Made by a program: the position numbers and the translations under genes
Source: a virus
Direction: 5' to 3' (one strand)
Length of the DNA stretch: 30,692 bases
Virus record (IMG/VR): IMGVR_UViG_3300023197_000086
Span: 1 to 30,692 of that record
Notes under the pieces: generated by a model
Database searches by the model: none
Told to the model about the DNA's origin: nothing
Seen by the model: only the letters and a program-made list of their open reading frames with translations
Shown: piece after piece, positions 500-27,856 of the stretch
How the letters are laid out: the number at the start of each line of letters is the position of its first letter
Numbering within the stretch: the stretch's first letter is position 1

Positions 500-1059
500 G
501 GGCCACCTGCCTTTCTCCTCGCCTCCAAGTCCTTCTTCACCATCTCTTTCATCTCAACCCAAGAGGTACGCTCCTCCTCGGCAAACATTTCCTGAAGGGT
601 TGGATCTGTTGACATCTGGCACCAGAATGCCCAACTGAATACTTTCCGAGCCTGGGTAGGGGTTAGGTCAAGACTGGTCTGCTCGATGAACCCGTGCTTG
701 AGATGGGTTAAAGTCCCCCTTCCCGAGATTTGCTCGATCCGCCATGTCACGCTTTTCATCTCGGGAATCCAGGAACCGGCTTCCCACCGAGACCACGGGT
801 GTCGTTGCCATCGTTGCTGACGGTACGTTGTCGCAGATTCTCGGCTGCCAAGCACGACGACGCCGATTGTCCCTCCGGGCCCACCCACCTCGATCACATC
901 GGCAATGGGTTCAAGTTCATCCGTAGCTCCCGGTAACTCAGTCTGAACGTAGTCCGTCTTGTAAGGCCAGAACGGCCATTGTTGCTTTTGCCAAAGGAGC
1001 TGTGCGACCAATAGGCCGAACGCGGAGATAGTACCTGCAATCATAAAGTGGGGAATCAC
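496..1059 (-). CDS. hypothetical protein with N-terminal membrane anchor
   Basis: hydrophobic N-terminus FMIAGTISAFGLLVAQLLW; 4-nt overlaps with both neighbours. Confidence 0.7.
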   Translation of the reverse strand: MIPHFMIAGTISAFGLLVAQLLWQKQQWPFWPYKTDYVQTELPGATDELEPIADVIEVGGPGGTIGVVVLGSRESATTYRQQRWQRHPWSRWEAGSWIPEMKSVTWRIEQISGRGTLTHLKHGFIEQTSLDLTPTQARKVFSWAFWCQMSTDPTLQEMFAEEERTSWVEMKEMVKKDLEARRKAGGP

Positions 1060-1733
1060 GCAATCACCTGCCCCGGCAACGACGGCGGCTCAAACCGCGA
1101 CGCCCAACGGTCGATGTAGGATGTTTCGATTCTCCCTTTCCGATCCCGCCACGACTGCAGAATCCGCACCGCCTGCTTTTCGCTCATCCCGGCGAAATCG
1201 GCCATGTCAACAATCCGGAACTTGGCGTCTTGACGGCTGCTTTCGCTCATCACGTAGGCGAGGCGGACACTCGCCGACTCGTAGGAAAGATCAGCCAACC
1301 GGGCCTGCATCGCCTTCAGCTCCGCAGAGACGAGCTTCGACATCGTGATGCCCAGCGCCGGGTGCCACGCCATAAGGCTTCGTATGGTCCAGTAGGGAAC
1401 CAAGCAGACGGTCATGTCCGTAACCGCCCGCCCGAAGGTGGTCAGGTCGTTGGGCGAGGCCGCGTACTCCATGTTGCTGGTGTGGCCCGGCCCGATGAAC
1501 TTGACGATCATGTTGTGGCCGGTGCGGTGAGGCACGATCACCTTCCCCCATCCGGACTCGACAAGCAGCAAGCCGAGATTCCAATCGTTGCCCAGGATGT
1601 AGTCCCCCGCCTCGACCTCCACGCGCTCGGCCTCGAACTCGGCTTCGGCCAAGTGCTCCGCGTCGAGATCGTGATCGACAAACGGATGGAACGTCGTAAT
1701 AGATGTCTCAGTCGTCTCGATTTCGCATGACAT
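1056..1733 (-). CDS. CRP/FNR-family transcriptional regulator (cNMP-binding-like domain + HTH)
   Basis: VEAGDYIL..LLLVESGWGKV..MIVKFIGPG..RAVTDMTVCLVP; C-helix RLADLSYESASVRLA; HTH IVDMADFAGMSEKQAVRILQSWR; ~225 aa; start moved from the ORF-track 2072 to the ATG at 1733. Confidence 0.8.
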   Translation of the reverse strand: MSCEIETTETSITTFHPFVDHDLDAEHLAEAEFEAERVEVEAGDYILGNDWNLGLLLVESGWGKVIVPHRTGHNMIVKFIGPGHTSNMEYAASPNDLTTFGRAVTDMTVCLVPYWTIRSLMAWHPALGITMSKLVSAELKAMQARLADLSYESASVRLAYVMSESSRQDAKFRIVDMADFAGMSEKQAVRILQSWRDRKGRIETSYIDRWASRFEPPSLPGQVIA

Positions 1734-2607
1734 GGACAATCGCAGAGAGCGAGTAGTCGGCGTCGCGACCGGAGAGGCAGATGCCCGCCGATCGCACAAA
1801 CTCGTCGCGTCCGATTTGGGTGGAGAACTCTTCCCCGTCGACTTGCCAGCGAACGCGGAACCCGTTGCCCTCCTCATCCCAAGAGCGAAGTTCGGCCCCG
1901 CTGTAGGCGAGCGCGTCCTGCAACCGGGTCTCGATCGACGCCTGCCGCTGCCGTTCGCGCTCCTGCTTCTCCATTTCCCAACGTGCTCGATGCAAGCTCG
2001 TTGCTGCCCCAAACGACTGGGGGAGGCCCCCGCTGTCCCCGGCGTCCTGTCCCCAAACCTTCTCCGACGCAAGGTTGTCTTGTGAGCGACGGGCCAGCGG
2101 GGGCCACACCGTCCGATGGTCGTATTGGTCGTACAACAGTTGCCCGTTCAGGTCGCGAGCCACGATCACGTCAAAGGGACGGATCGTCGGTGCTGTCACC
2201 AGATGCATGGGGCGTGGCACCGGTGTTCCCGAACGGGTAACGGTTGCCTCCGTGGTCGGCCATCCGCGCTGTCGGGCATCGCCCGCGTTCCAGGGATAGA
2301 CCAGCCAGGAGTGCCGACCAAGCCGATAGACGGCAATCACGCGAAATGCCGGTAGCTGGTAGAGGTAGTCAACGACACGAGCCGGTAACGGTTGCCCAAC
2401 GATCCGGGCCTGTCGATCGTCAAGTGGCCGCAGCTCCCACCAGCCCGGCGCCGCATCGACCACGTCCAAGTGGTAAGGCGTCTGTTCAATCAGCGTGGAG
2501 ATGCGGACCTCTCCGGCCTCGAGGACCGGGGCCACAATGGTGTGCTCGGCCAGCCGGTCGGCCCGCTGTTCCAGTCGGTCGATCAGGTCAAAGGCACTCT
2601 GTGCCAT
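1708..2607 (-). CDS. conserved hypothetical protein (299 aa, C-terminal SAGICLSGRD motif)
   Basis: GGAGGA RBS before ATG 2607; motifs WLVYPWNAGDARQR and VRSAGICLSGRDADYSLSAIV resemble a conserved bacterial family (recalled, not searched). Confidence 0.8.
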   Translation of the reverse strand: MAQSAFDLIDRLEQRADRLAEHTIVAPVLEAGEVRISTLIEQTPYHLDVVDAAPGWWELRPLDDRQARIVGQPLPARVVDYLYQLPAFRVIAVYRLGRHSWLVYPWNAGDARQRGWPTTEATVTRSGTPVPRPMHLVTAPTIRPFDVIVARDLNGQLLYDQYDHRTVWPPLARRSQDNLASEKVWGQDAGDSGGLPQSFGAATSLHRARWEMEKQERERQRQASIETRLQDALAYSGAELRSWDEEGNGFRVRWQVDGEEFSTQIGRDEFVRSAGICLSGRDADYSLSAIVHVMRNRDD

Positions 2608-2717
2608 TAATCCTCCAAGGAGGGGCGCGGCAGGGTGCGCAGTCAATCCCTGCCGCGCCGTGCTCCAACGCCTAGCAAGACACTGGCCGTGCCGGCATTG
2701 GCACGTCCAGAATCCGG

Positions 2718-2792
2718 TCAATCAAGTGCATCCGCGTCGTAGATCACCCAAGCCGTCTTCGTCGGACCGGGGTCAACGCCGAGAATCTTCAC
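2718..2792 (-). pseudogene. truncated RuvC-like resolvase N-terminal fragment
   Basis: VKILGVDPGPTKTAWVIYD matches the RuvC-fold first-strand motif ILGxDPG; stop after 24 codons. Confidence 0.5.
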
Positions 2793-3015
2793 GGTTTGTC
2801 CCTTGCAGGAAAGATTGGGCCTTTTGCTCAAGCCGTGCCGCGTGCCCCCGCTCAGCCTCATTCGGCTCTCGCAGATAAACGACTGCCCGTTCATAGTGGA
2901 TTTCATGGGCTGCTTGGCCGTGGAAAGGGCAAGTTGCTCGTCCCAGCGATGTCAGCCAATAGCAACCACACCGCGCATGGCATAAAGGCATCCGGATCCA
3001 ATCGGTTGGGCTCAT
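2773..3015 (-). CDS. small Cys/His-rich hypothetical protein
   Basis: CHARCGC..CPFH; abuts neighbouring genes. Confidence 0.55.
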   Translation of the reverse strand: MSPTDWIRMPLCHARCGCYWLTSLGRATCPFHGQAAHEIHYERAVVYLREPNEAERGHAARLEQKAQSFLQGTNREDSRR

Positions 3016-3144
3016 TCAGATCACGACGTTCCCATTCAAGCTCGGCATCGGCTCCGCAAGTCGAGACAGAGGGGTGCGGTTAAGGACCTCGACCGTGCCA
3101 TCGTCCCGGTCCACAGTGACACAGCCCCGCTCGTGAAACTCCAT
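3016..3144 (-). CDS. small hypothetical protein (42 aa)
   Basis: MEFHERGCVTVDRDDG...; fills the gap and abuts the next gene. Confidence 0.4.
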   Translation of the reverse strand: MEFHERGCVTVDRDDGTVEVLNRTPLSRLAEPMPSLNGNVVI

Positions 3145-3190
3145 CCTAGTGAATCGTAGAGGGCGCAACCGAAGCAACTTGGGGATCGAC

Positions 3191-3418
3191 TCACTCCTTG
3201 GCATCACTGATCCCTTCAAGCGCTTCAATCTTGGGCACGTCGAGCTTTTTCTCGACCTCGTCAATGTCCTCCTTGACCCACACGGAGGGGTACACGCCGC
3301 TGTGTAGGTAAAGGTACGAGCCTTCATCGGCAGCCGGTCGCGCAAAGAGGACGTGTTGCGCCGCCACAACTGTCTTCCTTCCCCCCGCGTCAGAGAACGT
3401 GGCCATTATGGGCATCAT
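3191..3418 (-). CDS. small protein, possibly FlbD-like fold
   Basis: GGAGG RBS; pattern GRKTVVAAQHV..SYLYL..VWVKEDIDEV. Confidence 0.6.
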   Translation of the reverse strand: MMPIMATFSDAGGRKTVVAAQHVLFARPAADEGSYLYLHSGVYPSVWVKEDIDEVEKKLDVPKIEALEGISDAKE

Positions 3419-3428
3419 AGCTAACCTC

Positions 3429-3608
3429 CTAGCCCTCCTTGTGCTCGGCCCGGTAGAACCGAATCACGTGGGCATACATCTGCTCGTAAGCGTTCTGGAA
3501 CGCAGCTGATGGCTCGGAATTCTTCTGATCGGCGGCGTATCGCCCCGCCTCCATCGCGGCCTCATGGGCCTGCTTACTGGCAAGTTTCGGGTCAGTTCCG
3601 AGCGACAT
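3429..3608 (-). CDS. hypothetical protein (59 aa)
   Basis: GAAGGTG RBS-like sequence, operonic position. Confidence 0.6.
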   Translation of the reverse strand: MSLGTDPKLASKQAHEAAMEAGRYAADQKNSEPSAAFQNAYEQMYAHVIRFYRAEHKEG

Positions 3609-3625
3609 GGTGATCCCACCTTCCT

Positions 3626-3928
3626 TCAGTCCGAATCCTTCTCGAAAACGCCGTCCTTGACCGATCCGGTTCGGTCCTTGATCTGTTGCCACGCATAGTC
3701 AACGCACTCGTCTAAGCTGAGATCGTGGGCCATCGCCACGCCGACCAGTGTGACGAACACGTCGCCGATCGCGTCCTGGAGATCGTCGGGATCCCCACTG
3801 ACATTCGCCTCAGCCAGCTCGCCCACCTCCTCGACGAGCTTCTGGAACGCTTTGTCGGAACTGACGGGGATGCCCCGGTCAACGTGCCAGTTCTCGATCT
3901 GCGTTTGGAGCTCTTGAAGTGTCATCAT
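3626..3928 (-). CDS. MazG-like nucleotide pyrophosphohydrolase
   Basis: KLVEEVGELAEA..DAIGDVFVTL (EExxE..D motif) and the phage MazG-like tail IKDRTG..DGVFEK. Confidence 0.9.
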   Translation of the reverse strand: MMTLQELQTQIENWHVDRGIPVSSDKAFQKLVEEVGELAEANVSGDPDDLQDAIGDVFVTLVGVAMAHDLSLDECVDYAWQQIKDRTGSVKDGVFEKDSD

Positions 3929-3934
3929 CGTGAA

Positions 3935-4010
3935 TGGTGGGGCTGGCAGGGCTCGAACCTGCAACCTCCCGATTAAAAGTCGGGAACTCTGCCATTTGAG
4001 TTACAGCCCC
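3935..4010 (-). tRNA. tRNA-Lys(TTT), CCA encoded
   Basis: GGGGCTG/CAGCCCC acceptor, CCCGA-CTTTTAA-TCGGG anticodon arm, GTTCGA T-loop, ACCA end. Confidence 0.95.
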
Positions 4011-4089
4011 TCTGGCGAGCCGAGAATTCAGCCAGAAGAAGGAGGGTTGTCACCTCTCAATGCAAAGATGGATTCGGCTCGCCAACCGG

Positions 4090-4118
4090 ACCCTACACGA
4101 TCCTGCAGTAAGTGTCAA
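4090..4118 (-). promoter_or_regulatory. putative sigma70 promoter with degenerate operator
   Basis: TTGACA-17nt-TAGGGT upstream of tRNA-Lys and mazG. Confidence 0.5.
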
Positions 4119-4174
4119 CCCCTCAAGCAAAGGCGGCGGAGTCAGAAACATGTGGAAATCCGGCAGGCAGGGGG

Positions 4175-4257
4175 TCCGCCGGGCAGGATTCGAACCTGCG
4201 AAGGCCCAGGCCAGCGAGGCTACAACCCGCCCGGTTTGCCCGCTTCCGTACCGGCGG
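4175..4257 (-). tRNA. tRNA-Tyr(GTA) with long variable arm and C1:G72 pair; CCA not encoded
   Basis: CCGCCGG/CCGGCGG+A acceptor, GCGGG-TTGTAGC-CTCGC anticodon arm, GCAGG-TTCGAAT-CCTGC T-arm. Confidence 0.85.
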
Positions 4258-4364
4258 ATGGAATGGAAGACGAAGAGGGTATGGCCGACGGCGGCGGGTC
4301 GATTAGAGGTGATCCATGCGAACGTTGATGCCGTCGGCCATGCTCAGCCCCTCATGGTAACTTG

Positions 4365-4523
4365 GCCTACAAAGGTCGTCCGAGCGTGAGAAGCTATGAG
4401 ACACCTGTCTCTCGGTTATTGAGCCGAGTGCTTTGCCGTTAAGCTACTCGCGCATGCTGCGCAAGGCAGGATTCGAACCTGCAATCGGGTTTGTAAGCCT
4501 CGCACTAAGGACGACCCGCAGGC
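4365..4523 (-). ncRNA. Y-RNA/YrlA-like RNA B: long terminal stem enclosing a circularly permuted tRNA module
   Basis: order is T-arm (4482-4466), 3' acceptor strand CTTGCGC, linker AGCAT, 5' acceptor strand GCGCGAG, D-arm, anticodon arm with 8-nt loop; outer stem GGTCGTCC/GGACGACC. Confidence 0.7.
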
Positions 4524-4524
4524 G

Positions 4525-4598
4525 TGGTTGCGGGGGCCGGAGTTGAACCGGCACGCTGCGGATATGAGCCGCACGCTCTGCCGTTGAGCTACCCCGCA
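4525..4598 (-). tRNA. tRNA-Met(CAT), initiator-like acceptor, CCA encoded
   Basis: TGCGGGG/CCCCGCA+ACCA, TGCGG-CTCATAT-CCGCA, GCCGG-TTCAACT-CCGGC; Met versus Ile2 identity not resolved. Confidence 0.9.
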
Positions 4599-4606
4599 CG
4601 TTAGAG

Positions 4607-4745
4607 AAAAGGCTGTTCGTCCGAGCGCAAGAAGCATCTTGGGACGACCTTTGGCGGGACTTGAACCCGCAACTGACCGCTCCGATGCGGTAGCTCTTCC
4701 TGTTGAGCTACGAAGGTTTGTAAGCCTCATGCTAAGGACGGCGCC
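4607..4745 (-). ncRNA. Y-RNA-like RNA A: same terminal stem enclosing a degenerate tRNA (core 4646-4717, 6-nt anticodon loop)
   Basis: shares CGTCCTTAGnnnGAGGCTTACAAACC and GCTTCTnnCGCTCGGACGA with RNA B; cloverleaf ACCTTCG..CAAAGGT with loop ATCGGA and no CCA; ends in GCCTTTT. Confidence 0.7.
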
Positions 4746-4768
4746 TCTCTCTCCCTCGAAAGGAGGAA

Positions 4769-4990
4769 TTATCCGTAGATCGGCTGCGGCATCAAGACTG
4801 CCCGATCGCCGTCTTGCTCGAAGACGTGGTTGTCCAGATCGCCGCGGTCAAGGTCCAACCGATCCTCGACGGCCTCATGCAGCTCGGCAAGGTCCGGCTG
4901 TTCGGGCAGATCACGCGCGTCGATCTCGTGCTCTTGCCCGTCGGCCACGACCTTCAACCGGCTGAACCGCATCTGCTCGAGAGCCGTCAT
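4769..4990 (-). CDS. small protein, possible ubiquitin-like/beta-grasp protein ending in Gly
   Basis: AGGAG RBS; 73 aa; strand-strand-helix-strand-strand pattern; C-terminus VLMPQPIYG. Confidence 0.7.
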   Translation of the reverse strand: MTALEQMRFSRLKVVADGQEHEIDARDLPEQPDLAELHEAVEDRLDLDRGDLDNHVFEQDGDRAVLMPQPIYG

Positions 4991-5042
4991 GGTTGAACTC
5001 CTTTCTCCTTGCTAGCACTCAGCGCGACCTCCTGAGGTGGCG

Positions 5043-5089
5043 AATGTAACACGGCGTCGCGGGATTGTCAATACTGGCAGGATCGTCAA
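5043..5089 (-). promoter_or_regulatory. sigma70 promoter (extended -10) with overlapping operator
   Basis: TTGACA(5071-5066)-17nt-TACATT(5048-5043) with TG element; TTGTCAAT-N9-ATCGTCAA at 5065-5089. Confidence 0.65.
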
Positions 5090-5094
5090 GGGGG

Positions 5095-5592
5095 CTAACC
5101 GCCCATCTCGTCCAGGCGGCGACGATCGACGACCCACAAACCGGACACACCCCGTTCCCGCCGCACGATACCTGATTTCTTGAATCGGGCGATAAGGCCG
5201 TTGACCGTCCCCAGCGGGATGCCCAACTCGTCAGCAATCTCATCGGACGAGTAATTGACGTGGCCCTCGGCATCACACTGCGCCAACAGAAAGTCCGCGA
5301 TCTCGCGTTTGCGCGGCTTCTTGCCCCCGTGATCAGGTGCTGTATCGGGCGCAGGTTCGTTGTCGACAGCAGCGATCGCGGTCAACTCCCGCTCGTTGAG
5401 CACCTGGATTCTGCCGCCGCGGAAGCGGATGGCGTTGCGATCGGCCAGCATGTCGAGAGCGTCAGAGATGACAGGGCGGGCGACTTGGGAAAGATCGGCC
5501 ATCTCGCTGCGGGCGTAGGCGGGCAGCGTTCCATCATAGAGCGCCGACTGGTGGAGCAGCCAACGGGCGAAGATCGCTACCGGGTCGCGCAT
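5095..5592 (-). CDS. tandem winged-HTH (Crp-type HTH) DNA-binding protein
   Basis: GGAGG RBS; ARSEMADLSQVARPVISDALDML..GGRIQVLN and YSSDEIADELGIPLGTVNGLIARFKKSGIV. Confidence 0.8.
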   Translation of the reverse strand: MRDPVAIFARWLLHQSALYDGTLPAYARSEMADLSQVARPVISDALDMLADRNAIRFRGGRIQVLNERELTAIAAVDNEPAPDTAPDHGGKKPRKREIADFLLAQCDAEGHVNYSSDEIADELGIPLGTVNGLIARFKKSGIVRRERGVSGLWVVDRRRLDEMGG

Positions 5593-5698
5593 TTCCAACC
5601 CCTCCACATTCGGGGTATTATCCTGGGCCAGCGCTTCCTTATCGTCTCCGTCGAGGGGCGAGGGTTCGCCCCACCCTCGCCCCTCCCACCCCTCGAGA

Positions 5699-6121
5699 TC
5701 ATTTCTCGTAGCGCACAGCCAACCCGCGATCCAGCAGGTCGCGATTGACGTTGATCCAGTCGCCGCCGTGCTTAACGTGGATCGTTGCAAGGTAGCGGCC
5801 GAAGCTGCCCTCACCTTCCTTGTGCGTCTGGACCATCACATCGTCCGCGTCCCGAATCATGCGCTGCAGGTGGTCGCGGGCGGCGACCGCCTCGTCGTGG
5901 CGGTCGCCGTGCAGCTCCGGGGTGTCGATGCCGTCCAGGCGCAGGTCGGTCGCCTTCAACCACATGTGGAACCCGAGGTCGATGTCGACATCGGTGATCG
6001 TGTCGCCGTCGTAGACCTTGTTGACGTGGGCACGGAAGTAGTAGGGCGCGGCTTCGATTGAGACCATGTGGAGCTTACCCAGCTGGCCGGTCAAGAGCTT
6101 TGTTGTGCTCAGCTCTGCCAT
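5699..6121 (-). CDS. thermonuclease (SNase) family protein
   Basis: KVYDGDTI, DLGF, RLDGIDTPE, FGRYLA, VNRDLLDRGLA. Confidence 0.92.
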   Translation of the reverse strand: MAELSTTKLLTGQLGKLHMVSIEAAPYYFRAHVNKVYDGDTITDVDIDLGFHMWLKATDLRLDGIDTPELHGDRHDEAVAARDHLQRMIRDADDVMVQTHKEGEGSFGRYLATIHVKHGGDWINVNRDLLDRGLAVRYEK

Positions 6122-6126
6122 AACGG

Positions 6127-7068
6127 TCAACCGTTGCCCTTCCTTTTCATGAATTCGTGAAGCGACTGGTCCCCGCTGCCCTTCGGCGGCTCGAACTGGC
6201 CGGTTTGCAGCCACTCGGCCTTGGTCAAGACCCACCAATCGCGGGCCAAGCCCTCGAGGACGTAGCGGTAGGGCATCCAGCCGTAGCCTCGATTGCCCCA
6301 CGACGTGCCCCAGGAGTTGCGGATCATCAGCGCGCCCTTCTCGGACTTGCCGTTGATCGGGTTGCGGACTTCCCTCTGGTCGTCGAACCCGATGGCGACA
6401 ACAGCGTGGCCGCCCTTCTGCTTCTCGTTGTTGGCGGGGAAGGGGATGTGGCCTTCACTCGCCGCTCCCTGGTTGGCCCGATACAGGCTCTCGTAGACGG
6501 GGAAGCCGAACATCGCTGGGGTCTTCGAGGCGAGGTGGGCTTTGATGCGACGAAGCTGCTGTTCCGGGCCGGTGTTGGGCGGGTCGAGGCGCTGATACTT
6601 GAGCCCCTGGAAGGCTTGGGCGTAGTTGTAGAGGAACGGCGTCGGCTCCTGGTCGAACTTGTCGGTGTTGTACGGCCAGTAATCCTCCGGCGGCGCGCCG
6701 AAGACGACGAGCGCTTGTAATGCCGAGCGGCAGAAGGCGCCCGTGTCGCCGGTCCAGCCGAGCAGGTTGCGCGTCACCTTGTAGACGAACAGGCGCGAGG
6801 CGTTGATGAACGTCCCGCGCGCCTGTTGCTCACAGAACTCCAGCAACCCAACAGCGGCCTGGGCCGTGCAACTGCCGATCTCGCCCTGATCCTCGATCGG
6901 CGAATCCCACTGCCGCAGGTCGATTTGAGGCGGAAGCTCATCTTGGCTTACATCTTCGGGAGATTTCCCGCTAGGTGAGTTAAGGCGGACGCCCGCCTCG
7001 TCATCTTCCGGCGTGAAGTCGCGGTTGTCGGGGAAATCGGGCAACCAGCCCATGTAGCGTGTCTGCAT
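6127..7068 (-). CDS. papain-family (C1A) cysteine peptidase
   Basis: DQGEIGSCTAQA (Gln/Cys), GGHAV (His), IRNSWG (Asn). Confidence 0.95.
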   Translation of the reverse strand: MQTRYMGWLPDFPDNRDFTPEDDEAGVRLNSPSGKSPEDVSQDELPPQIDLRQWDSPIEDQGEIGSCTAQAAVGLLEFCEQQARGTFINASRLFVYKVTRNLLGWTGDTGAFCRSALQALVVFGAPPEDYWPYNTDKFDQEPTPFLYNYAQAFQGLKYQRLDPPNTGPEQQLRRIKAHLASKTPAMFGFPVYESLYRANQGAASEGHIPFPANNEKQKGGHAVVAIGFDDQREVRNPINGKSEKGALMIRNSWGTSWGNRGYGWMPYRYVLEGLARDWWVLTKAEWLQTGQFEPPKGSGDQSLHEFMKRKGNG

Positions 7069-7095
7069 GTTGACTCAGCCCCTTCTGTTGAGAAT

Positions 7096-7263
7096 CTAGC
7101 TTGACGACTTGCGAAAGCCGTCGCCGTTGTAGCGAATGCCCGCAATGCGGGGCGGTTCCCACTTGGGTTCGAACTCCATGCACCCGCATACCGAGCAGCG
7201 ACCGTCCTCCGAATGAACTCGACGATGATGGTCACACCGACAGTAGTCGTCCCGCACCGGCAT
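7096..7263 (-). CDS. small Cys/His zinc-binding protein
   Basis: CRCDH..H..CSVCGC. Confidence 0.6.
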   Translation of the reverse strand: MPVRDDYCRCDHHRRVHSEDGRCSVCGCMEFEPKWEPPRIAGIRYNGDGFRKSSS

Positions 7264-7412
7264 CAGACCACCTTGGCTCCACAGTGGGGACACGTCTCAT
7301 CGTCCGTCACGCCCCGGTGACAATATGGGCACTTGAACGTGATGGGGACTTGCTGCTGTGCCTTCTGCCGCTGCGGCCGGATAGGCATGTTCGGATGGAA
7401 TCGCTTACGCAT
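7263..7412 (-). CDS. small zinc-ribbon protein (49 aa, not in ORF track)
   Basis: GGAGGTG RBS; MRKRFHPN..FKCPYCHRGVTDDETCPHCGAKVV; TGATG overlap with the next gene. Confidence 0.7.
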   Translation of the reverse strand: MRKRFHPNMPIRPQRQKAQQQVPITFKCPYCHRGVTDDETCPHCGAKVV

Positions 7413-7427
7413 AGCACCTCCTGGCGG

Positions 7428-7640
7428 TCACGTTTTCTGTTCGTAGGTTTCCTGCACCCGTTCGGCCAGCCAAAGCATCTGGTTGATTGTCTCTTGGTAA
7501 GGGACGTCTGACGAGTGGTCGATGACCTGTTGAGCGGATTCCGAAATCCACTTGCGATCGGACTCCGGCAAGTGGCGCCAGTAGCCGGCGATATGCTTCC
7601 AGCCGTCACAGATCCGTTGCGGTTCGCTCTTGCTTGCCAA
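7428..7640 (-). CDS. hypothetical protein (70 aa)
   Basis: TTG start preceded by the AAGGGGCTGAG motif. Confidence 0.6.
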   Translation of the reverse strand: MASKSEPQRICDGWKHIAGYWRHLPESDRKWISESAQQVIDHSSDVPYQETINQMLWLAERVQETYEQKT

Positions 7641-7664
7641 ACTCAGCCCCTTTGTCGAGACACC

Positions 7665-8114
7665 TTAGACGTTCATCGCCTCCCGCATCTTTCGCAATGC
7701 CTGACGATTCAAGTCGGACACCCGCGAGCCGGTGACGCCCAAAACCTCACCGGTCTGATCCACCGTTCGCAGATAGAACATGGACCACGTCTCATTGTCC
7801 CCCAGCCGGTCCAGGCCGAGCCGGTACCAGATCGACTCGTACTCACGCTGGGTCCAGATGTCGGGGCGGTGGCGGATGTGGTAGATGGCGTCGTTCACGA
7901 TCTGTTGGCTGAACTGCTTGACGGTGCGTGGATCGGGGGCATAATTGCGCGGCACGAAGGACTGGCCGGCTTCGGCCTGCATGCCGCGCTGCATAATGCG
8001 GTTGATGACCTCTTGGGGGTCGCCGTCCAAGTCATTCAGAAACTCGGACTCGGCTTGGGAGAACTGGCCGCGGAACAGCCAGAGGCCGTTCCGCTGCTCG
8101 ACGGTGACATACAT
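7665..8114 (-). CDS. protein with C-terminal sigma70 region-4-like HTH
   Basis: WTQREYESIWYRLGL..RTVDQTGEVLGVTGSRVSDLNRQALRKMR; GGAGG RBS. Confidence 0.8.
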   Translation of the reverse strand: MYVTVEQRNGLWLFRGQFSQAESEFLNDLDGDPQEVINRIMQRGMQAEAGQSFVPRNYAPDPRTVKQFSQQIVNDAIYHIRHRPDIWTQREYESIWYRLGLDRLGDNETWSMFYLRTVDQTGEVLGVTGSRVSDLNRQALRKMREAMNV

Positions 8115-8157
8115 GGTGGTGCCTCCTGCCATTAAGCCCCTCAACTGCCGACTGTCG

Positions 8158-8385
8158 TTACAAGAGCGGGTCCATGTCCAACGATAGCACACGTTCGCGA
8201 ATGGCGGCGCGTTGGTCGGGATCGCGTAACGAGTCTATCAGCGCCGACGCCTCTTGCGTCGACATGTCCTCGAGGTTGTCGCAGCCATGATAGCGTGCCA
8301 ACAGGCCGAGCGGAATCCGGTGCGCCCCTTGGTGGTGGCCGCACAGATCCTCGATAAACTTGACCTGCTTCGGCGTCGCCATCAC
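8158..8385 (-). CDS. small hypothetical protein (ATPKQ..EASALID motif)
   Basis: common phage helical motif ATPKQVKFI..MSTQEASALIDSL. Confidence 0.75.
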   Translation of the reverse strand: MMATPKQVKFIEDLCGHHQGAHRIPLGLLARYHGCDNLEDMSTQEASALIDSLRDPDQRAAIRERVLSLDMDPLL

Positions 8386-8675
8386 GCCTCGTCCTCTTCA
8401 GGCTCGCCGGGCAAGGGGAAATAACGCTCGTCGGGTCGGAAGCCCCACTCCGCACCGCATGTCGCTCGGTGCGGTCCGTCGTGCCCGTAAGGCATCTGGC
8501 AGAAGCACATGGCGCATCCGTCCTCATAGATCGTGCGACACAACCCGCGCATGCGAGCGCGGTCGGCTTGGATCAAGGTCGCTTCGTATGCCTGCTTCCG
8601 TTGCTCCAACTCGGGCTCGGGCATGGTGGAAGGGTACGCGTTCTCGTAGTGATTCTCAACCCCCACGGTCATCAC
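8382..8675 (-). CDS. hypothetical protein, Cys/His motif
   Basis: C..C..GHDGPH; overlaps the next gene. Confidence 0.6.
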   Translation of the reverse strand: MMTVGVENHYENAYPSTMPEPELEQRKQAYEATLIQADRARMRGLCRTIYEDGCAMCFCQMPYGHDGPHRATCGAEWGFRPDERYFPLPGEPEEDEA

Positions 8676-8714
8676 TGCGGCAACGAGTAGACGTGCCAGC
8701 CACCCAGCGTGGCC

Positions 8715-9068
8715 TCATCCATCGCGGCCCACCCCGTTGCACTTCGAGCGGCTCACCCACATGTCGCGGGTCACGTCGGGCCGACAGGCGCCGCACTCCT
8801 GCGTGGGCATGTCGTAGAGATGACCATCCGTGCAGCGGTGCCCGATCACTTCGTCACCCGGCGGCCCTTGGTTGAGCGCATAGAGGCTCGTCTCCCACGC
8901 GAGCCGGGCCTTGGCCGACAGACGCGAGATGTAGACCCACATGACGGCCACGGCGAACGCGAGGAGCGAGAACGTGCCTGCCGCCCACAACCCTGCCGTG
9001 CGCCCCGTCTGAATCAGGAGTCCCGCCAATCCGATCAGAACGACGGTTTGTATTAAACGCTGTATCAT
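8715..9068 (-). CDS. membrane protein (2 TM) with C-terminal Cys cluster
   Basis: two hydrophobic helices; CTDGH..CGAC. Confidence 0.65.
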   Translation of the reverse strand: MIQRLIQTVVLIGLAGLLIQTGRTAGLWAAGTFSLLAFAVAVMWVYISRLSAKARLAWETSLYALNQGPPGDEVIGHRCTDGHLYDMPTQECGACRPDVTRDMWVSRSKCNGVGRDG

Positions 9069-9154
9069 AGTGGCACCCTACGCGGAGTCTTTGAGATCGT
9101 CAACCCCTTGTTGCACAATGATCGTGACTGGCATCTTCCAAGGGGTGATCTTTC

Positions 9155-9487
9155 ATGAAACGACTGCGACCGCTTCTGATCGGTGTCGCTGCGGGCCTTC
9201 TCATCGCCGCAGCGGTGGTGATGATCCAGTCACAGAATGAGCCCAGCCCGGAGGAGGAGGCGATTCATGCGGCGAAGACATTCCTGTATCGGCGGCTCGA
9301 GGCCGGTCGCGCCTCCGTGGAGAAATTCGAGCGGGTCGAAGTCGTCTACTACGGCGAGAAGGTTTGTGTGAAAGGCCATTATCTGACGGAGTGGAACCGT
9401 GGTCGCTTTACAGCCCACATGACCGACTTGGGTACCGAATATCGGTTGGAGATGTTCGACTGGTATTTGAGTTGTCCGAGGGGTTGA
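9155..9487 (+). CDS. small membrane-anchored/exported protein
   Basis: MKRLRPLLIGVAAGLLIAAAVVMI signal anchor; GGGGTGA RBS; lone plus-strand gene in this arm. Confidence 0.7.
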   Translation: MKRLRPLLIGVAAGLLIAAAVVMIQSQNEPSPEEEAIHAAKTFLYRRLEAGRASVEKFERVEVVYYGEKVCVKGHYLTEWNRGRFTAHMTDLGTEYRLEMFDWYLSCPRG

Positions 9488-9585
9488 CCAAAGCAGAACG
9501 GAGCCTCGACGTTTGCCGAGACCCCGTTCTGAGCCGATTGCCGAATGGTCAGGGGTGTGCTTAGGTTGCCCGTAGGGTAAACGAT

Positions 9586-9927
9586 CTAGGAGGGATTGTC
9601 AACCCTCCAAGGCTCGACGCCTTGCCACTCGCCCGTCCCTTGAGACTCCAGCAGGTTTGCGTCATAGCTCGTCCATTCATACGAGAAGGAACGTAGGGCC
9701 GGTATCTGATTGTGGCGCTTGATCCCCTGACGGATCGACTTGGCGCAACGATCGCAGAGGACGAACTCAATGGGCCCCAACCGCAGCTTCCAGGCCGGGT
9801 CATTCGGGCACCGGTGTAGTCGTTGACGCCAGTCGCGGACGTCGGCCTGACACTCCGCGCACTCGGTCGGCAGATATTGCGTCTCTAGAACCGGATCTTC
9901 GTTCCGTGACGGCCAGGACTTATGCAC
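9586..9927 (-). CDS. hypothetical zinc-binding protein
   Basis: CAEC..CDRC. Confidence 0.55.
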   Translation of the reverse strand: MHKSWPSRNEDPVLETQYLPTECAECQADVRDWRQRLHRCPNDPAWKLRLGPIEFVLCDRCAKSIRQGIKRHNQIPALRSFSYEWTSYDANLLESQGTGEWQGVEPWRVDNPS

Positions 9928-9998
9928 GACATATGGGGGTGCTGTGCGACAAGTGGATCTCAGAGATCGCCGGATCGTCGTGGACGGTGAAGATAACG

Positions 9999-10214
9999 TT
10001 ACCCAACGTCACTCTCCCAGTCCCCCTCTTTTTTAATGTTGTACTGACGGCGCAGCTCTGCCTGCTCGTCCTCGGTGAGGCCGCGCAACACGTCCCGGTC
10101 CTCGATCGCAAACTCCCGCGTCTCACGATGTCGGTAGACGAGATAGCCGTTCACCACGGTGACCGGCTTCCACACGTCGTCGTGGCTTGTCCTACTGTGA
10201 CCCATAGCTATCAA
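9999..10214 (-). CDS. hypothetical protein (71 aa)
   Basis: overlaps the kinase stop codon. Confidence 0.6.
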   Translation of the reverse strand: MIAMGHSRTSHDDVWKPVTVVNGYLVYRHRETREFAIEDRDVLRGLTEDEQAELRRQYNIKKEGDWESDVG

Positions 10215-10795
10215 GCGTAAGTTAATGCCGGGTCCAAATCGGCCAATCGTGTTCGGATGCTCTCCCGAAGCTCGGCCAGCGACCCGTCGTTGGCGATCAT
10301 GTCGTCGAAGGGGTAGTTCTCAGGATGGAGCGAGTTCTCGCTCACATGGCCCTGTCCGGTCCCGGCTCCGGCATCCGGGCGGTCCACCCACCAGACCTGA
10401 CCGCCGAGGTCATGCCGGATCATCTCGGCCTCGTTGACGAAGCGCAGATCGCTCACCACCCAGCTGAGGGCGGCGTTGGCGACGATGCGGCGTTGGGTCC
10501 AATAGATCCACGTCTCGGTGTGGATCTGGCGGGCGACCTCGGTGCCGAAGCGTTGGGCGATGACGCGGGGCGAGAGCCCCCAGCGCGGATCGACGACCTC
10601 TTTCAGGTCGCCGTACATCTGCTCGTAGGTGAGATCATAGATGAGCATGAGGGACCGTTTGAGCGGATCGGCAAATTCGGTCTTGTTCCAGCGAGCCCAT
10701 CCATCCGTGACGCCCTCGAGGACCACGTCCTGCCCGACCGTGTCCTTACCGGCGCGAGCGAGCCCGGCGATGCCGATCACGATCTGGCGACTCAT
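10211..10795 (-). CDS. deoxynucleoside monophosphate kinase (phage type)
   Basis: IGIAGLARAGKDTVG P-loop, FADPLK, PRVIAQRFGTE, VVSDLRFVNE, HVSE. Confidence 0.92.
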   Translation of the reverse strand: MSRQIVIGIAGLARAGKDTVGQDVVLEGVTDGWARWNKTEFADPLKRSLMLIYDLTYEQMYGDLKEVVDPRWGLSPRVIAQRFGTEVARQIHTETWIYWTQRRIVANAALSWVVSDLRFVNEAEMIRHDLGGQVWWVDRPDAGAGTGQGHVSENSLHPENYPFDDMIANDGSLAELRESIRTRLADLDPALTYA

Positions 10796-11838: not shown

Positions 11839-12019
11839 GGTCAATAACCTCCCCGCGTTCGCTCAACCAGATGTCTTCGTAGACACAGTAGAGAACCATT
11901 TCGTCCGCAACCGGGAAGAACCCGGCGCCCAACACAAGCGCAGCATCTACGCGACGAATGCTGGCCAACTCCGTGCCGCAATATGGACAGAACACCATGG
12001 CCGCCGCTGTCGCCGGCAT
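11822..12019 (-). CDS. small zinc-ribbon protein
   Basis: FCPYCG; GGGGTGA RBS. Confidence 0.55.
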   Translation of the reverse strand: MPATAAAMVFCPYCGTELASIRRVDAALVLGAGFFPVADEMVLYCVYEDIWLSERGEVIDHERDN

Positions 12020-12031
12020 CGTCGTCACCCC

Positions 12032-12056
12032 TTGACGATACAAGTGAGATCGTCAA
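12032..12056. promoter_or_regulatory. palindromic operator TTGACGAT-N9-ATCGTCAA
   Basis: perfect palindrome with the same arms as 15334-15358. Confidence 0.65.
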
Positions 12057-12158
12057 GGGTAACCCTAACATGATCGCCCAGGGTGGGCAAGGACGGGGAA
12101 GGGCGATGCGTTCTGTTGTATATCACGACAGTTTGCCCTTCCCCGCCTGTGCCTCCTC

Positions 12159-13400
12159 TTACGCCGCGACGGTTGCCGGTGCTTCGGCCTCGACACGCGG
12201 CAACAGCTCGCGGATTTCGTCGTCGTCCACGTCCGATGTCCGGTCGGACTCCATAAAGCGCCAGCGCTGCCACAGCGCCCTTATCAGGCGCGAGGATGTG
12301 TTGCGGGAGGCGGTGTTGCGGACGTGGTCCGGGTTGCCGAAGAGGCTCTTGCAGTGCTCGCAGCGCCACACCGGATACGCCTTGCCGGTCTCCTCGTCGG
12401 TGTGACCGAGGTAGGCCCACCCTCCGGCATAGTTACTCTCACACTGGCGACACTTCTTCTGGCGACAGGTCGCACAGACGGCAGGCGGCTCGTCGGTGTA
12501 GCGATCGAGCCGATCCAGGCGCACCCGCTCCTTCTCCGCGTCGAGCAGATCCTTGAACGGCCCCATCTTGCCCCGCCCGTGTGAGCCTCTGCCGACGGAC
12601 TGCATCCAGTCCTGAAGGACGAGGGCCTTGCGCATCTGGTTGATGTTGACGTTCCCGCCGCGCTGCACGCGCTCGGCCACGACCTCCCCGTTGATGGTGT
12701 TGGTGGTGACGCCGAGCCACGCTTGCAGCGCCTCGGGGGTAGGGAAGCAGTCGATGCCGCGAGCCTCTTGCACCGTGGTCCGCTGCGTGCCGAAGGCGAT
12801 CGCTTCGTCGACGGGCTCCTCGTCGCACGGGCAGCTTTCGTAAGGCTTATCGTGCTGCACGCACATCAGCTTGCGCTGCCCGCCGATTTCGCCGATCAGC
12901 GCCGCCGGGATGTAGAGGTCGCCGGAGGTGCCGAACATGGCGCTGAAGAAGCCGTCCCACAGCGGATCGTCCTTGACAAACGCCTTCATCCGCTTGACGA
13001 GATAGCTTTTGCGCTCCTCCTCGATCCGATTACGGATCTCGGCGTGCATGCCGGAGAGCACGTCGCCGTCCTCGAGCGAGAGCAGCAGGGCCGACCGATC
13101 GCTGAACGAGCGGTCCAGTGCCACACGGCTTTGCACCCATTTCTTCGCGGCCCGCGAATACTGGCGCATCTTGAGCCGATGGCGCAGAAGCGGGTCTTCC
13201 GGGAAGCCGGAGAAGTCGCCTCGGAGGAAGGCATTGAAGAACGTCTTGGGATCGTTTTGCCAGTGATCCGGGTGGAGGTTGATGGCCCAGATCCACTCAG
13301 TGTAGTGGGCGGCGCACAGCGTCGCCGCCTTCGGCATCACTTTGCTCGTCTGGTAGCTGTTGGTCTTGCTGGCCGAGCACTGCATCCGATCGCACCCCAT
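12159..13400 (-). CDS. Nop-domain RNA-binding protein (TasA-like; IS110 C-terminal/Nop fold) with zinc-finger insertions
   Basis: AAGGAG RBS; coiled-coil followed by DDPLWDGFFSAMFG..PAALIGEIG..IDCFPTPEALQAWLGV..RGGNVNINQMRK..FKDLLDAEKER..HVRNTASRNTSSRLIRALWQRWR; no RuvC or HNH motif seen; adjacent to the stem-loop array. Confidence 0.8.
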   Translation of the reverse strand: MGCDRMQCSASKTNSYQTSKVMPKAATLCAAHYTEWIWAINLHPDHWQNDPKTFFNAFLRGDFSGFPEDPLLRHRLKMRQYSRAAKKWVQSRVALDRSFSDRSALLLSLEDGDVLSGMHAEIRNRIEEERKSYLVKRMKAFVKDDPLWDGFFSAMFGTSGDLYIPAALIGEIGGQRKLMCVQHDKPYESCPCDEEPVDEAIAFGTQRTTVQEARGIDCFPTPEALQAWLGVTTNTINGEVVAERVQRGGNVNINQMRKALVLQDWMQSVGRGSHGRGKMGPFKDLLDAEKERVRLDRLDRYTDEPPAVCATCRQKKCRQCESNYAGGWAYLGHTDEETGKAYPVWRCEHCKSLFGNPDHVRNTASRNTSSRLIRALWQRWRFMESDRTSDVDDDEIRELLPRVEAEAPATVAA

Positions 13401-13418
13401 GTGGGTGACTCTCCTTTC

Positions 13419-14311
13419 TCGGCGAGGCCGGGTGACATTGTTGCTTATAGATCCCATCGGTTCACCCGGCCTGCCGATCAACCTGCAAGGGTGCGGCGAT
13501 AAGGATCGTTGTAGACACAAATAATTAGCCGCACCCTCGCAATCCTCGCGGTGGGAGCGATCCGTAAAATTGTAGATCCGAGCAATTCACTCCCACAGCC
13601 GTACAACGACGCGGGCGTGGCGATGACGCGACTTATGGACCGAGCTCTTTTGCCACGCCCGCAATCTCCGACGGGGCGATCCTATAACTTTTGTATGGAG
13701 GGGTTCGCCCCCCCGCCGCTGGCACCGTCCGACAACGCACCGGGCCGGTGGGACACGTTGTATGGGCGACCTCTGGAATAACCGGCCCGGAATCTCGAAG
13801 GGGCGGTGTGTACCTCGTTTGTTTTGGATCGCTTCCATTCAAACCGCCCCTCCCATCGCTCGGCGGGGAGGGATGGCGAATATTTTGGATAGAGCAGGTT
13901 CCCTCCCCGCCGGCATCGCCGAGGGGAGGACGATGGAGTCGGTAAGCCACCATGCCAGTTTGCCCTCCCCTCGAATCGCGGCGGCGCGGCGGATGCCGCC
14001 AGTTCTCGACAGACCTAATTGCCGCGCCGCGCATATCGCATCGACGGATGGGAGGGGACGAGGGTACTTTTAGATACATTGCATATCCCTCCCATCCGTC
14101 GCATCTCCTTTCGTCGGCGGAGCCGGGTCGATCAGGCCGTTTTTGGACGCTCCCTTTTCGACCCGGCTCCGTCCGCTTCGATCGCAGGGCCGGTGGGCGG
14201 CAATACCACCTGTTCTGGATTCGGATCGTCTGCCGCCCACCGACCCGCCTATCACCGGGCGGGGTGGTGATTGCTAACGTTATAGATAAGCTCATTTTAC
14301 CAACCCGCCCG
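13419..14311 (-). ncRNA. stem-loop dual-spacer guide RNA array (TIGR-like), 14 units
   Basis: 14 GC-rich hairpins at ~60-75 nt period; most loops read AA-N8-RTC-nAn-AA-N8-RTC; G-U wobbles favour the minus strand. Confidence 0.88.
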
Positions 14312-14317: not shown

Positions 14318-15265
14318 CTATTTCCGATCGGGGAAGTCGAGCCCGCGCAGGTGGCGGGCTGCGGTCTTCGCATCGTTGGTGTCGAGCCAACCGCTTTGCG
14401 ACAGCTCGTCCGCGGTGGCGGCGTAGCGGCGAGCCGTATCGAGGTCGTTGTCCTTGGCGTGGCGGGCGGCACTGTCGGCCAGCCGTTCCACGCGCCCGAC
14501 AATCTCCTGCGAGATCGACGTGCGCATCACGTCGTCAAAGGTCTCGAGCGGCAGGTCTGCCATCTCCTCGTCGATAAATCGCTGCAACAACCGGTCAAAG
14601 CCCTTTACGTCATCGGCCTCTGGCTGGCTGGTGAACATGTGCTCGGCTGCGGCGGGGATGAACGGTCGTGCGAGGGAGCCAAGGGCGTACTGCTTCATCC
14701 CGACCAGCTGCGCACGCTCCTTGGCCACGGCCTGCCAGTTCTCGCGGCGCGGACCGAGCCTCTCCATCCACTCCTGGGTCAGCCGACTGTGGCTGATGAG
14801 CCAACCCGGATAGATCAGGTTGCGCAGCGCGTACTTGGGCGTGATCTGGTAAGGCAACGAGGTGTTGGCGATCGCTTCGCCAAGGTTGTTGCCGGCGTAA
14901 AAGAACCACGATCGGAACAGCCAGTACGATTCGTTGGCCCGGGCAAAGTAACCGTTGCTCGCCCCGGCGTTGTCGATGGCGAGATGGGCCATCGCCTCTT
15001 CCTTGCTGTAGCCCGACATCTTGAACGCATTGACATGGGTGATCCCCGCCTGATCCAAGATGTAGATGCGGCTCTCCCCGGTCTCGACGATCTTGGTCCC
15101 GTCCGGCAGCTCCAATATGGTCGGCGGGTTGATCCACGCCCGCCCGATGCGCTGCTCGTTCGCAAGGTTGCGCAGCTGCCGTTCATCCTTCACCAGCGCG
15201 TTGATGTTGAGCGGGTTGTAGATGAGCTCAGCTATTGGATAGTTCGTGAGGTCATGGAACCGCAA
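14318..15265 (-). CDS. ParB/Srx-like N-terminal domain protein
   Basis: PIAELIYNPLN..LRNLA..INPPTILELPDGTKIVETGESRI..AGITHV..AIDN matches the ParB pattern including GxxR; AAGGGGCTGAG motif upstream. Confidence 0.75.
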   Translation of the reverse strand: MRFHDLTNYPIAELIYNPLNINALVKDERQLRNLANEQRIGRAWINPPTILELPDGTKIVETGESRIYILDQAGITHVNAFKMSGYSKEEAMAHLAIDNAGASNGYFARANESYWLFRSWFFYAGNNLGEAIANTSLPYQITPKYALRNLIYPGWLISHSRLTQEWMERLGPRRENWQAVAKERAQLVGMKQYALGSLARPFIPAAAEHMFTSQPEADDVKGFDRLLQRFIDEEMADLPLETFDDVMRTSISQEIVGRVERLADSAARHAKDNDLDTARRYAATADELSQSGWLDTNDAKTAARHLRGLDFPDRK

Positions 15266-15333
15266 GTGTGACTCAGCCCCTTTCGTGAATGGTCTCCTGC
15301 TACCTATCCCACCCCCCCCGCCTGCGTCGGCGG

Positions 15334-15372
15334 TTGACGATCACGATAACATCGTCAAGCCCCAAGTGTCAA
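15334..15372 (-). promoter_or_regulatory. promoter of the parB-array-tas unit with palindromic operator
   Basis: TTGACA(15372-15367)-18nt-TATCGT(15348-15343); TTGACGAT-N9-ATCGTCAA at 15334-15358 overlaps the -10. Confidence 0.6.
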
Positions 15373-15551
15373 CATCTTTGTCATGCTCTCACATGTGATA
15401 GTGTAGCACGGTTAATAAAGGGCAGCGGTCAGTCTGCGCCTCGGAGTCCCTAGCCTTGCCCGGGAAAGGCGGTGTCAATCAATTAATGGCCCCTGAATAG
15501 GCTCCGTCAAGCCGCTCGGCAGACGCCCTCAGCACGACACGACTGAGGGCA

Positions 15552-15580
15552 TTGACACAGGATAGTTGGAGTGATACCCT
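15552..15580 (+). promoter_or_regulatory. putative sigma70 promoter
   Basis: TTGACA-17nt-TACCCT with TG element. Confidence 0.5.
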
Positions 15581-15629
15581 CTGGGTCACTATGCACATCT
15601 CGGCGCGTTGTCAACACGGAGAGAACCTG

Positions 15630-15983
15630 ATGGGGTTCGTCAGCCTGAACAGCCGGGAAGCCAGACTGTTGGGGGAGACGCCAGAGGACCGGCGGCTGGC
15701 CCTCGAAAACCTGCTGCACGAGCACTTGCAGCACTTGGAGCGGGAGAGCCGTGCGCGCTCCGAACCGCTCTCCGGATACACTCCCGAGACGATCGAGGCC
15801 GTCCGCCACCAACTCGCCACCGACGGCGCCGCGGTCTCGGAGTCCCTCCGCCGCTTGCTCGATCTGCGCTTCAATCAAGAGCTTTCCTTGAAAGCCACTG
15901 GCGAGCAGATCGGCTTCTCCGCCCAAACCGTCAAGAAACACGAACGCAAAGCCCTGACCGCCCTCGGCATCAAACCCGAATAA
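15630..15983 (+). CDS. sigma70 region-4-like HTH protein
   Basis: LRRLLDLRFNQELSLKATGEQIGFSAQTVKKHERKALTALG; start could also be 15591. Confidence 0.8.
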   Translation: MGFVSLNSREARLLGETPEDRRLALENLLHEHLQHLERESRARSEPLSGYTPETIEAVRHQLATDGAAVSESLRRLLDLRFNQELSLKATGEQIGFSAQTVKKHERKALTALGIKPE

Positions 15984-15987
15984 AACA

Positions 15988-16030
15988 GGCAGGTAGGTGA
16001 CCGGTCAAACCCGGCCGCAGCCTACCTGCC
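15988..16030 (+). terminator. hairpin after the HTH gene (possible terminator, no U-tract)
   Basis: GGCAGGTAGG...CCTACCTGCC 10-bp inverted repeat. Confidence 0.35.
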
Positions 16031-17086
16031 CTATCCCTGCCGAGAAAATGCAATGGTGAGAGCAAACAGCCTAGCAGGGCCGTCCCTCCTAAAGCAACTG
16101 ATGCAATAGATTTAAGTGGGAAGCGGATGAGGGCGTGCGTGTCGAGACGTCGCCCGCCAATAAATAGACCCCTCCCTTCTAGCAGATTGGAAGAAAGGTT
16201 ACTAGAGGAGGAGGGGATGGAAGGCAGGGTTTGGCGTGCCTAAAAAGTGAAAGCATGCCCACATCCCCCCCTGGGGGTATTGATACAGCCTAGTCGGTGT
16301 GTTAGTATTGGGGTAGATGACCAAGATAGGGTCAAGATGGAGGATGATAGGCTCAAGATAACCTGAGAGAAGCTGTGACGTATTAGCAAGGTGACGGGGA
16401 GAGCGCGTCGCGTGAGCACGTGCACCCCCGGATTGCCGCGAGACGCCCCGGCAACCGACCGTGACCGGTGCTGCGGGCAAGGGACGGGAGTACGTCTTGC
16501 GGGATAAGGGGAGCGGACACACGTCCGCCAGAGCTCCCACGCCCATACATACCGGACAGCCACACGGTCTGCACGTCCCGTGCGAGTCCTCTGCCACCCG
16601 TGCATCCTCTAGCGGGACACCGTGAGAAACGGCTGGCACACGTACCGAATGGCTCTGCGTGTGTGGTGGACCTTGGGACACGCCCACACCTATGTCCTCA
16701 CTATAGATGACCGGATTGCACTCCGACACTCGCGCGCACATCTCTGGACACATGGCTACACCCCCAGTGTAACCCGTAAAGGAGTGAGTGTGCTATGCCC
16801 CGCAACAGTGTATGGGTGCAGGAGATGTGCAATGACTGTAAGACGCCCCGTTACAACGTGAGTCGCTACACCATTGACACTCAAGTGGCAGACGCTACGC
16901 CGATATGTGCGGTATTGTGCAGCGTTCCAGCCGGGACTTATGCCCTGAGTGTGCCGATGGGTACGACGTCAAGGGACGTCTGTTATATCCCTTGACGTTG
17001 AAGCAAGCGGCGATCTTGACAGGCTGACACGGACGACGGACACGCCATGTGTCCAGAGACGTGCGTGCGAGTGACCCCGCAATCCC

Positions 17087-26233: not shown

Positions 26234-26511
26234 GCTTTCGCTCCGACCCAACTTCTGATTGAATAGCGATTCCGACGCGACGGGGCGGCGTGGGACCGAC
26301 AACCGGCTGAACTGTTGACAAGCGTCAGTGGTGACAGCCGGGCGTCCACAGAAGACAGAGACCGGACCCAAAACCATCGAGCTGCTGCCACAGACGATCG
26401 AGCACACCCCACCGCAATCGTTGTGGCAAGCCACGCCGCCCGGTGTCGGCCCATTTCCAAATCGGTGTCCGACCAACACCCCTATCTAACAACGGAAGGA
26501 GTGAAGCAAGC

Positions 26512-27807: not shown

Positions 27808-27856
27808 CCACCGCTGACAGCAATTTCCCTCCACGCACCGTTTGTTGGGTGTCAAC

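Follow-up and report, generated by a model that had tools for sequence, protein, structure and literature searches.

The window analyzed here spans positions 1 to 30,692 in the record of an uncultured phage, 111,451 bp long, and carries a row of hairpins on its minus strand, each holding two short variable segments between constant letters. Does this row encode guide RNAs and, if so, for which protein and to what end? A first-pass annotation of the bare sequence had proposed a TIGR-type array, perhaps of a new subtype. The features that bear on the question are these:

Window 15343-15372, minus strand: candidate sigma-70-like promoter match (10/12, extended -10) upstream of the parB-like gene, the array and the tas-like gene; two such matches were found against 1.5 expected
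Window 14318-15265, minus strand: ParB_N-like gene (P0001, 315 aa), adjoining the array on its upstream side, same strand
Window 13419-14311, minus strand: main stem-loop array, 14 units of AA-N8-RUC-YAN-AA-N8-RUC within unit-specific stems of 8-15 bp
Window 12159-13400, minus strand: divergent TasA-like Nop-domain gene (P0002, 413 aa) with its own ribosome-binding site and no recognized nuclease domain
Window 12090-12147, minus strand: single extra unit of the same grammar with a 13-bp stem, just past the tas-like stop codon
Record 33066-33262, outside the window, minus strand: three-unit array with perfect AA-N8-RUC grammar, from a genome-wide scan

All 14 units annotated previously in the main array are present on the minus strand, with a period of 55-75 nt, and each reads stem, AA, 8 nt, RTC, YAN, AA, 8 nt, RTC, stem. 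The spacers had been listed correctly in 27 of 28 cases; spacer B of unit 6 was out of register and should read CCGACTCC. Their length, given before as 8-9 nt, is 8 nt in 27 of the 28 and 7 nt in the other one, with 9 nt found in none. Units 6, 9 and 10 are degenerate, having either altered boxes or a 7-nt spacer. As had been claimed, the stems keep pairing yet differ in sequence, and 15 of 17 units (the 14 of the main array and the three distant ones) fold with z ≤ -2, the exceptions being unit 10 (-1.15) and unit 12 (-1.82). Repeat finders were expected to overlook such an array. Indeed, Tandem Repeats Finder returned only one 8-bp doublet, and an Rfam search of the array gave nothing meaningful.

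Across the same 17 units, four box positions never vary, namely the second A in both AA boxes and the T in both RTC boxes, and AA and RT are repeated at the edge and loop junctions. The spacer columns hold 0.01-0.62 bits, and no two of the 34 spacers are the same. Genome-wide, there are 11 occurrences of the strict motif (eight in the main array and three in the distant one), compared to a mean of 0.32 and a maximum of 2 in 50 shuffled genomes. A relaxed rule combining motif and stem gave 16 matches against a mean of 0.4 and a maximum of 2 in 30 shuffles, and missed the degenerate units 6 and 9. GAT, which had been noted as common between the hairpins, is found in 11 of 13 linkers; across 930 nt it appears 24 times, compared to 5 for CTT.

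With the extra unit and the three-unit array, the phage carries 18 units at three separate places (14 + 1 + 3). The phage's single tas-like gene is ~19 kb away from the three-unit array, so this array would need to work in trans. The three A spacers in it are similar to one another, directly or as reverse complements, and bear a weak likeness to a DnaA-box core. Downstream of the extra unit, at window 12020-12065 and 11960-12015 (minus strand), there is a hairpin of 14 bp whose single 9-nt loop is closed by GAT/ATC, along with a possible degenerate dual-spacer unit.

The gene downstream of the array starts ~20 nt past the last hairpin. Its frame is open for 475 codons (window 12162-13586, minus strand) and runs upstream through array units 12-14, with the ATG at 13400 carrying the ribosome-binding site. 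P0002 has no Pfam assignment, and the best of 18,950 NCBIfam models was NF052498, TIGR_Tas_endo (E=2.9e-4 over residues 216-381), at 20.9 bits compared to a cut-off of 100. In a genome-wide search, it was the only match to NF052498 (E=3.9e-5) and the only match, below threshold, to PF02371 (E=0.005). A profile built from 40 Tas sequences picked it out from 1,056 genome ORFs with E=5.8e-7, the next best being E=2.6, and its bit score of 25.8 compares to at most 5.5 in 500 shuffles. Additionally, hhalign aligned P0002 to Tas over 170 collinear columns (E=0.0016) with the Nop motifs in order.

Not every profile recovered the protein. A set of 164 sequences, mostly from the SpTasH clade, missed it. 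Profiles of single clades gave E=19 for SpTasH-like proteins (13 sequences), E=0.84 for the canonical stem-loop clade (18) and E=3.4e-6 for other Tas proteins (9), which places P0002 outside the canonical stem-loop clade that we sampled. AlphaFold reached a pLDDT of 38 from the single sequence. With 31 Tas sequences aligned, it reached 61 with a pTM of 0.57, and parts of the Nop core scored 80-90, a result that is partly circular. Long helices at residues 70-95 and 112-143 of this alignment-guided and again partly circular model raise the question of the coiled-coil dimerization helices that precede the Nop C-terminal domain in TIGR-Tas proteins.

With the array grammar, the adjacency of the gene and the remote homology of its product to Tas established, we conclude that the array and the Tas-type matches of the downstream gene most likely represent a stem-loop TIGR-TasA system. 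The TIGR-type reading of the first-pass annotation is thereby supported by a divergent Tas/Nop-domain gene that it had not named. The ParB-like gene was considered as the effector and set aside after the Nop gene was found; its relatives yielded no loci.

We asked how closely the array follows the published box code. It shares the general features of stem-loop TIGR arrays, having variable palindromic stems and two spacers of 8-12 nt between boxes that are the same at the edge and the loop. Spacers of 8-12 nt are described for TIGR (Faure et al., PMC12045711), with 8 nt in SpTasH, so the 8-nt length seen here falls within the range. The boxes themselves differ from the CNA/YG sets described by Faure et al. 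and Xu et al. In the box sets described in these papers, box C begins with a C that is paired to the G in box D. PateTasR has CUU/UG boxes, and a CUU motif occurs at stem bases (Xu et al., 10.64898/2026.09.09.750476); at our locus, GAT takes the place of this CUU-type feature in the linkers. Canonical stem-loop control arrays read CCA-N9-CG-N4-CCA-N9-CG. TIGRFinder seeds on CCA, CGA, CTA or CAA with TG or CG (Xu et al., 10.64898/2026.09.09.750476). Our version of this seed step, re-implemented from the methods text with a 9-nt spacer and the same boxes, found no pairs on either the main or the three-unit array. The same step found at least one pair on 17 of 18 canonical stem-loop clade loci and on one of eight other Tas loci. 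Since Faure et al. (2025, PMC12045711) allow for divergent TIGR motifs as long as these covary, a mismatch with the canonical box set separates a subtype without excluding the family. No AA/RU box appears in the passages of Faure et al., Xu et al. and Guan et al. considered here; the supplements may list one.

The register of the boxes could be read in two ways. The first-pass annotation gave AA-N8R-UC, which now appears less likely than AA-N8-RU(C). In the latter register, a predicted A:U box pair is possible at the edge junction in 15 of 17 units (14 Watson-Crick and one G-U) and at the loop junction in 15 of 17, where it would close a canonical-like 4-nt CYAN loop. The alternative G:C register gives Watson-Crick pairs in nine of 17 units at the edge and in two of 17 at the loop. 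If A:U is the box pair, the half-unit measures 16 nt, compared to 18 nt in canonical arrays.

A change in the boxes directs attention to the residues that would read them. In PlTasA, R306 and K310 touch the box C bases (Guan et al., 10.64898/2026.08.11.744272). Mapping by hand through the Table S1 sequence, we matched the guide-binding residues R287, H299, R306, K314 and R321 of PlTasA to R292, H359, R366, R374 and R381 of P0002. The box-C-reading K310 is a lysine in all 31 references, which form three related groups (13, 13 and 5) and are not 31 independent cases, and it is S370 in P0002. Other near-invariant Tas residues are also altered (S223E, W226Q and Y286L), and the unwinding aromatic position is V261. 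The guide and the protein appear, from their sequences, to have changed together, with A:U replacing C:G and serine replacing the box-C-reading lysine. Because other near-invariant positions differ as well, the K310-to-S370 change is one suggestive coincidence and does not prove covariation.

The same losses could mean that this is a decaying TIGR locus whose protein no longer works, a reading that would also account for the degenerate units 6, 9 and 10 and for the lack of relatives in our searches. The ORF, however, is intact and has a strong ribosome-binding site. The same non-canonical boxes occur in 18 units at three places, within stems of unrelated sequence that still pair, and decay would not yield one consistent motif. 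We therefore consider decay very improbable and retain the reading of a stem-loop TIGR-TasA system.

Our preferred interpretation, which we think likely to be correct, is that a stem-loop TIGR array here accompanies the gene of a divergent Tas protein (Nop domain) that lacks a nuclease, and that the system acts as an RNA-guided DNA-binding repressor. The array would be transcribed, with the promoter-like site at 15372-15343 as a possible start. On the model of PlTasA and MbTasA, the transcript would be cut, probably in the GAU-bearing linkers, into hairpin guides of 55-65 nt, and a TasA dimer would grip both AA/RU junctions of a guide. The two spacers would then base-pair with opposite DNA strands, specifying a 16-bp site in which A is followed by the reverse complement of B. 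Lacking a nuclease, the bound complex may act as a roadblock when genes of the host or of competitors are transcribed. Repression of transcription is reported for the nuclease-free MbTasA and for dead TasR, and units on both sides of the gene are reported for TIGR (Xu et al., 10.64898/2026.09.09.750476). At our locus, too, units flank the tas-like gene on both sides.

We searched the phage's own genome for targets in the TIGR geometry and found no match with up to one mismatch. Allowing up to two mismatches gave two matches, compared to 1.5 for mismatched A/B pairs. The paired A and reverse-complement-B targets suggested by the first-pass annotation are thus not found above chance in this genome, and the targets are probably located in the host or in competing elements. 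One 15/16 match to unit 5 lies at position 39779 of the record in the order reverse-complement B then A. Its permutation fraction is 0.06 without gaps and 0.17 with gaps, before correction for the geometries tried, and it is not significant.

The non-canonical order of this match would fit a ribonucleoprotein of the same composition that targets differently, either by pairing with RNA in the manner of snoRNAs or by pairing with DNA in a different geometry or in a shifted register (9-nt spacers that have a purine at the end, and NAA/UC boxes). A half-unit 2 nt shorter than canonical, the DNA-unwinding residues that are not clearly kept, and an edge junction that can be read as GAA-N9-UC in eight of 17 units plus one A:U covariant all point the same way. 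Set against these are the statistics of the unit 5 match and the failure of the G:C reading at the loop junction. Moreover, the Tas proteins assayed in the work described by Xu et al., Faure et al. and Guan et al. all bind DNA. On balance, a different mode of targeting seems unlikely, and we favor the DNA-binding repressor.

A further reading concerns the parts of P0002 that lie outside the Nop core. No HNH, RuvC or other nuclease family was found in the protein with Pfam, PHROGs or NCBIfam, DEDD_Tnp_IS110 had no Pfam match, and the HNH portion of the Tas profile stays unaligned to it. Yet ~70 N-terminal residues and two insertions match no family and are poorly modeled, and the N-terminal Cys/His segment or an insertion could in principle be an unrecognized nuclease that makes the protein a cutter like TasH or TasR. 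Given the negative domain searches, we regard this as the least probable reading, with only a slim chance of being right. The N-terminus and both insertions are Cys-rich, with 13 cysteines in these segments, and the cysteines probably bind zinc.

These added segments, together with the neighboring gene, raise the alternative that TasA is an RNA-guided adaptor whose Cys-rich insertions bring a partner, such as the upstream ParB-like protein, to DNA sites set by the guides. The parB-like gene, the array and the tas-like gene follow one another on a single strand after one promoter-like site, and no minus-strand terminator-like site interrupts the series. P0001 resembles ParB_N: its family comprises 12 relatives at 23-33% identity in the alignment, three of which match PF02195, its ESM Atlas structure matches have a TM of ~0.5, and the GxxR motif is kept. 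The C-terminal region of this family is conserved. Gene adjacency in a phage genome is nevertheless weak evidence, and none of the 12 ParB-like relatives came with DNA context in which co-occurrence could be seen. Faure et al. (PMC12045711) also describe TasA as having no clear associated proteins. We find the adaptor distinctly unlikely and return to the nuclease-free repressor.

We looked for relatives of this system at the level of both protein and array. No homologue of P0002 was found among 5.8 billion proteins in a word-index search of lengths 227-723, nor among viral contigs, PDB sequences or PHROGs; the best phage tblastn hit had E=0.9, and scores in the ESM Atlas stayed below 0.8. Four supplementary files of Faure et al. 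(PMC12045711), with Table S1 covered to 9,182 rows, contain none of the three P0002 peptides looked for, and the locus may still be catalogued. A second array with the AA/RU grammar and at least two stemmed units was found in none of 51 and none of 37 viral loci. Among 119 metagenome loci, from a scan that covered 31 of 64 parts with search patterns requiring near-perfect neighboring units, the only one with at least two stemmed units was a 16-bp tandem repeat. A weak Tas-profile match at another locus was an unrelated HNH. The case rests on one genome. The boxes do differ from CNA/YG, as the first-pass annotation suspected; its proposal of a new subtype comes from a single genome, with no homologous locus found in which covariation could be seen.

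A bolder version of the same reading is that this locus is the founding member of a separate TIGR lineage. Its interface would have been re-coded jointly, through AA/RU boxes with A:U pairs, the Lys-to-Ser change, 16-nt half-units and GAU processing sites. Both the array seeds and the protein cut-off that have been published would overlook such a lineage. It would be orthogonal to the Tas proteins already known, would use trans guides from distant orphan arrays, and possibly would engage a ParB-like partner via zinc-binding insertions. We offer this as a tentative proposal that is rather more doubtful than not.

Among known systems, the nearest is stem-loop TIGR-TasA, represented by PlTasA, BlTasA and MbTasA (PMC12045711; 10.64898/2026.09.09.750476; 10.64898/2026.08.11.744272). 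As described there, it shares tandem hairpins with unit-specific stems, two short spacers between boxes, a 4-nt loop, a Nop-only protein encoded next to the array, units that flank the gene on either side along with sub-arrays, and no evident C-terminal Y/H processing loop. It differs in having CNA/YG (or CUU/UG) boxes with C:G pairs, compared to AA/RU(C) with predicted A:U here, in its 18-nt rather than 16-nt half-unit, and in carrying CUU rather than GAU at stem bases. The serine in place of the box-C lysine, the Cys-rich N-terminus, the two Cys-rich insertions and a three-unit sub-array 19 kb from the gene set our phage apart from it. SpTasH, a dual-repeat TIGR from Salicola phage CGphi29, shares the 8-nt spacers, the 16-bp target (predicted here) and a phage origin. 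Unlike our locus, it has dual repeats, CCA boxes and an HNH nuclease, and its clade profile fails on P0002. IS110 bridge RNAs and box C/D snoRNPs, compared in Faure et al. (PMC12045711), share a Nop-fold protein that reads box-flanked tandem guides. Unlike IS110, the locus has no RuvC/DEDD domain or element ends, and it encodes an array of many independent guides instead of one bridge RNA. We regard the locus as most likely of the stem-loop TIGR-TasA type, its box code being non-canonical and its protein unusually divergent.

If this is true, the box C/D code that Nop-domain guides use can be re-coded when RNA and protein change in step, which would bear on the divergence of TIGR, IS110 bridge RNAs and snoRNAs. 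Present catalogues of TIGR, built from CNA/YG seeds and a profile threshold of 100 bits, would miss whole branches. The system would also be a compact repressor, PAM-free and nuclease-free, with guides that known Tas proteins are unlikely to accept, and its 18 guides would offer a route to natural TIGR targets once the host is identified. Cultured phages that bear Tas genes, annotated as hypothetical protein or transposase, are tractable hosts for finding such targets. They include Microcystis phage Mvi-JY20, which has a dual-repeat array, as well as Gordonia phage Morrissey and mycobacteriophages Rich, Scowl and Omega, which have canonical stem-loop units; 83 mycobacteriophage records matched.

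The record has HK97-type portal and capsid genes. Its terminase is only ~25% identical to those of known phages, and a capsid word search found no related phages. The first 100 bases recur at 110,860, and the 592-base overlap is not identical overall. No RNA run was listed with this sequence, and reads from the sole DNA run, which is possibly the source of the contig, showed no differences.

Several other features of the genome are recorded here. A tRNA gene cluster at window 3935-4717 (minus strand) encodes Lys, Tyr and Met tRNAs and one without assignment. The long gene-poor stretch at window 15270-17050, with a switch in transcription direction, a Sigma70_r4 gene (15552-15983), purine-rich tracts and short repeats, is a candidate control or origin region. 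Accessory genes at window 1056-10795 and 26443-29947 include cNMP-binding/Crp-like, MazG-like, double Crp-HTH, SNase and papain-type C1 peptidase genes, as well as Sigma70_r4, dNMP kinase, sliding-clamp-like and DNA methyltransferase genes. Beyond the window, an intein lies inside an SNF2-type helicase gene at 36423-39791 of the record, and a ParA-like ORF was recognized by eye at 106729-107523.
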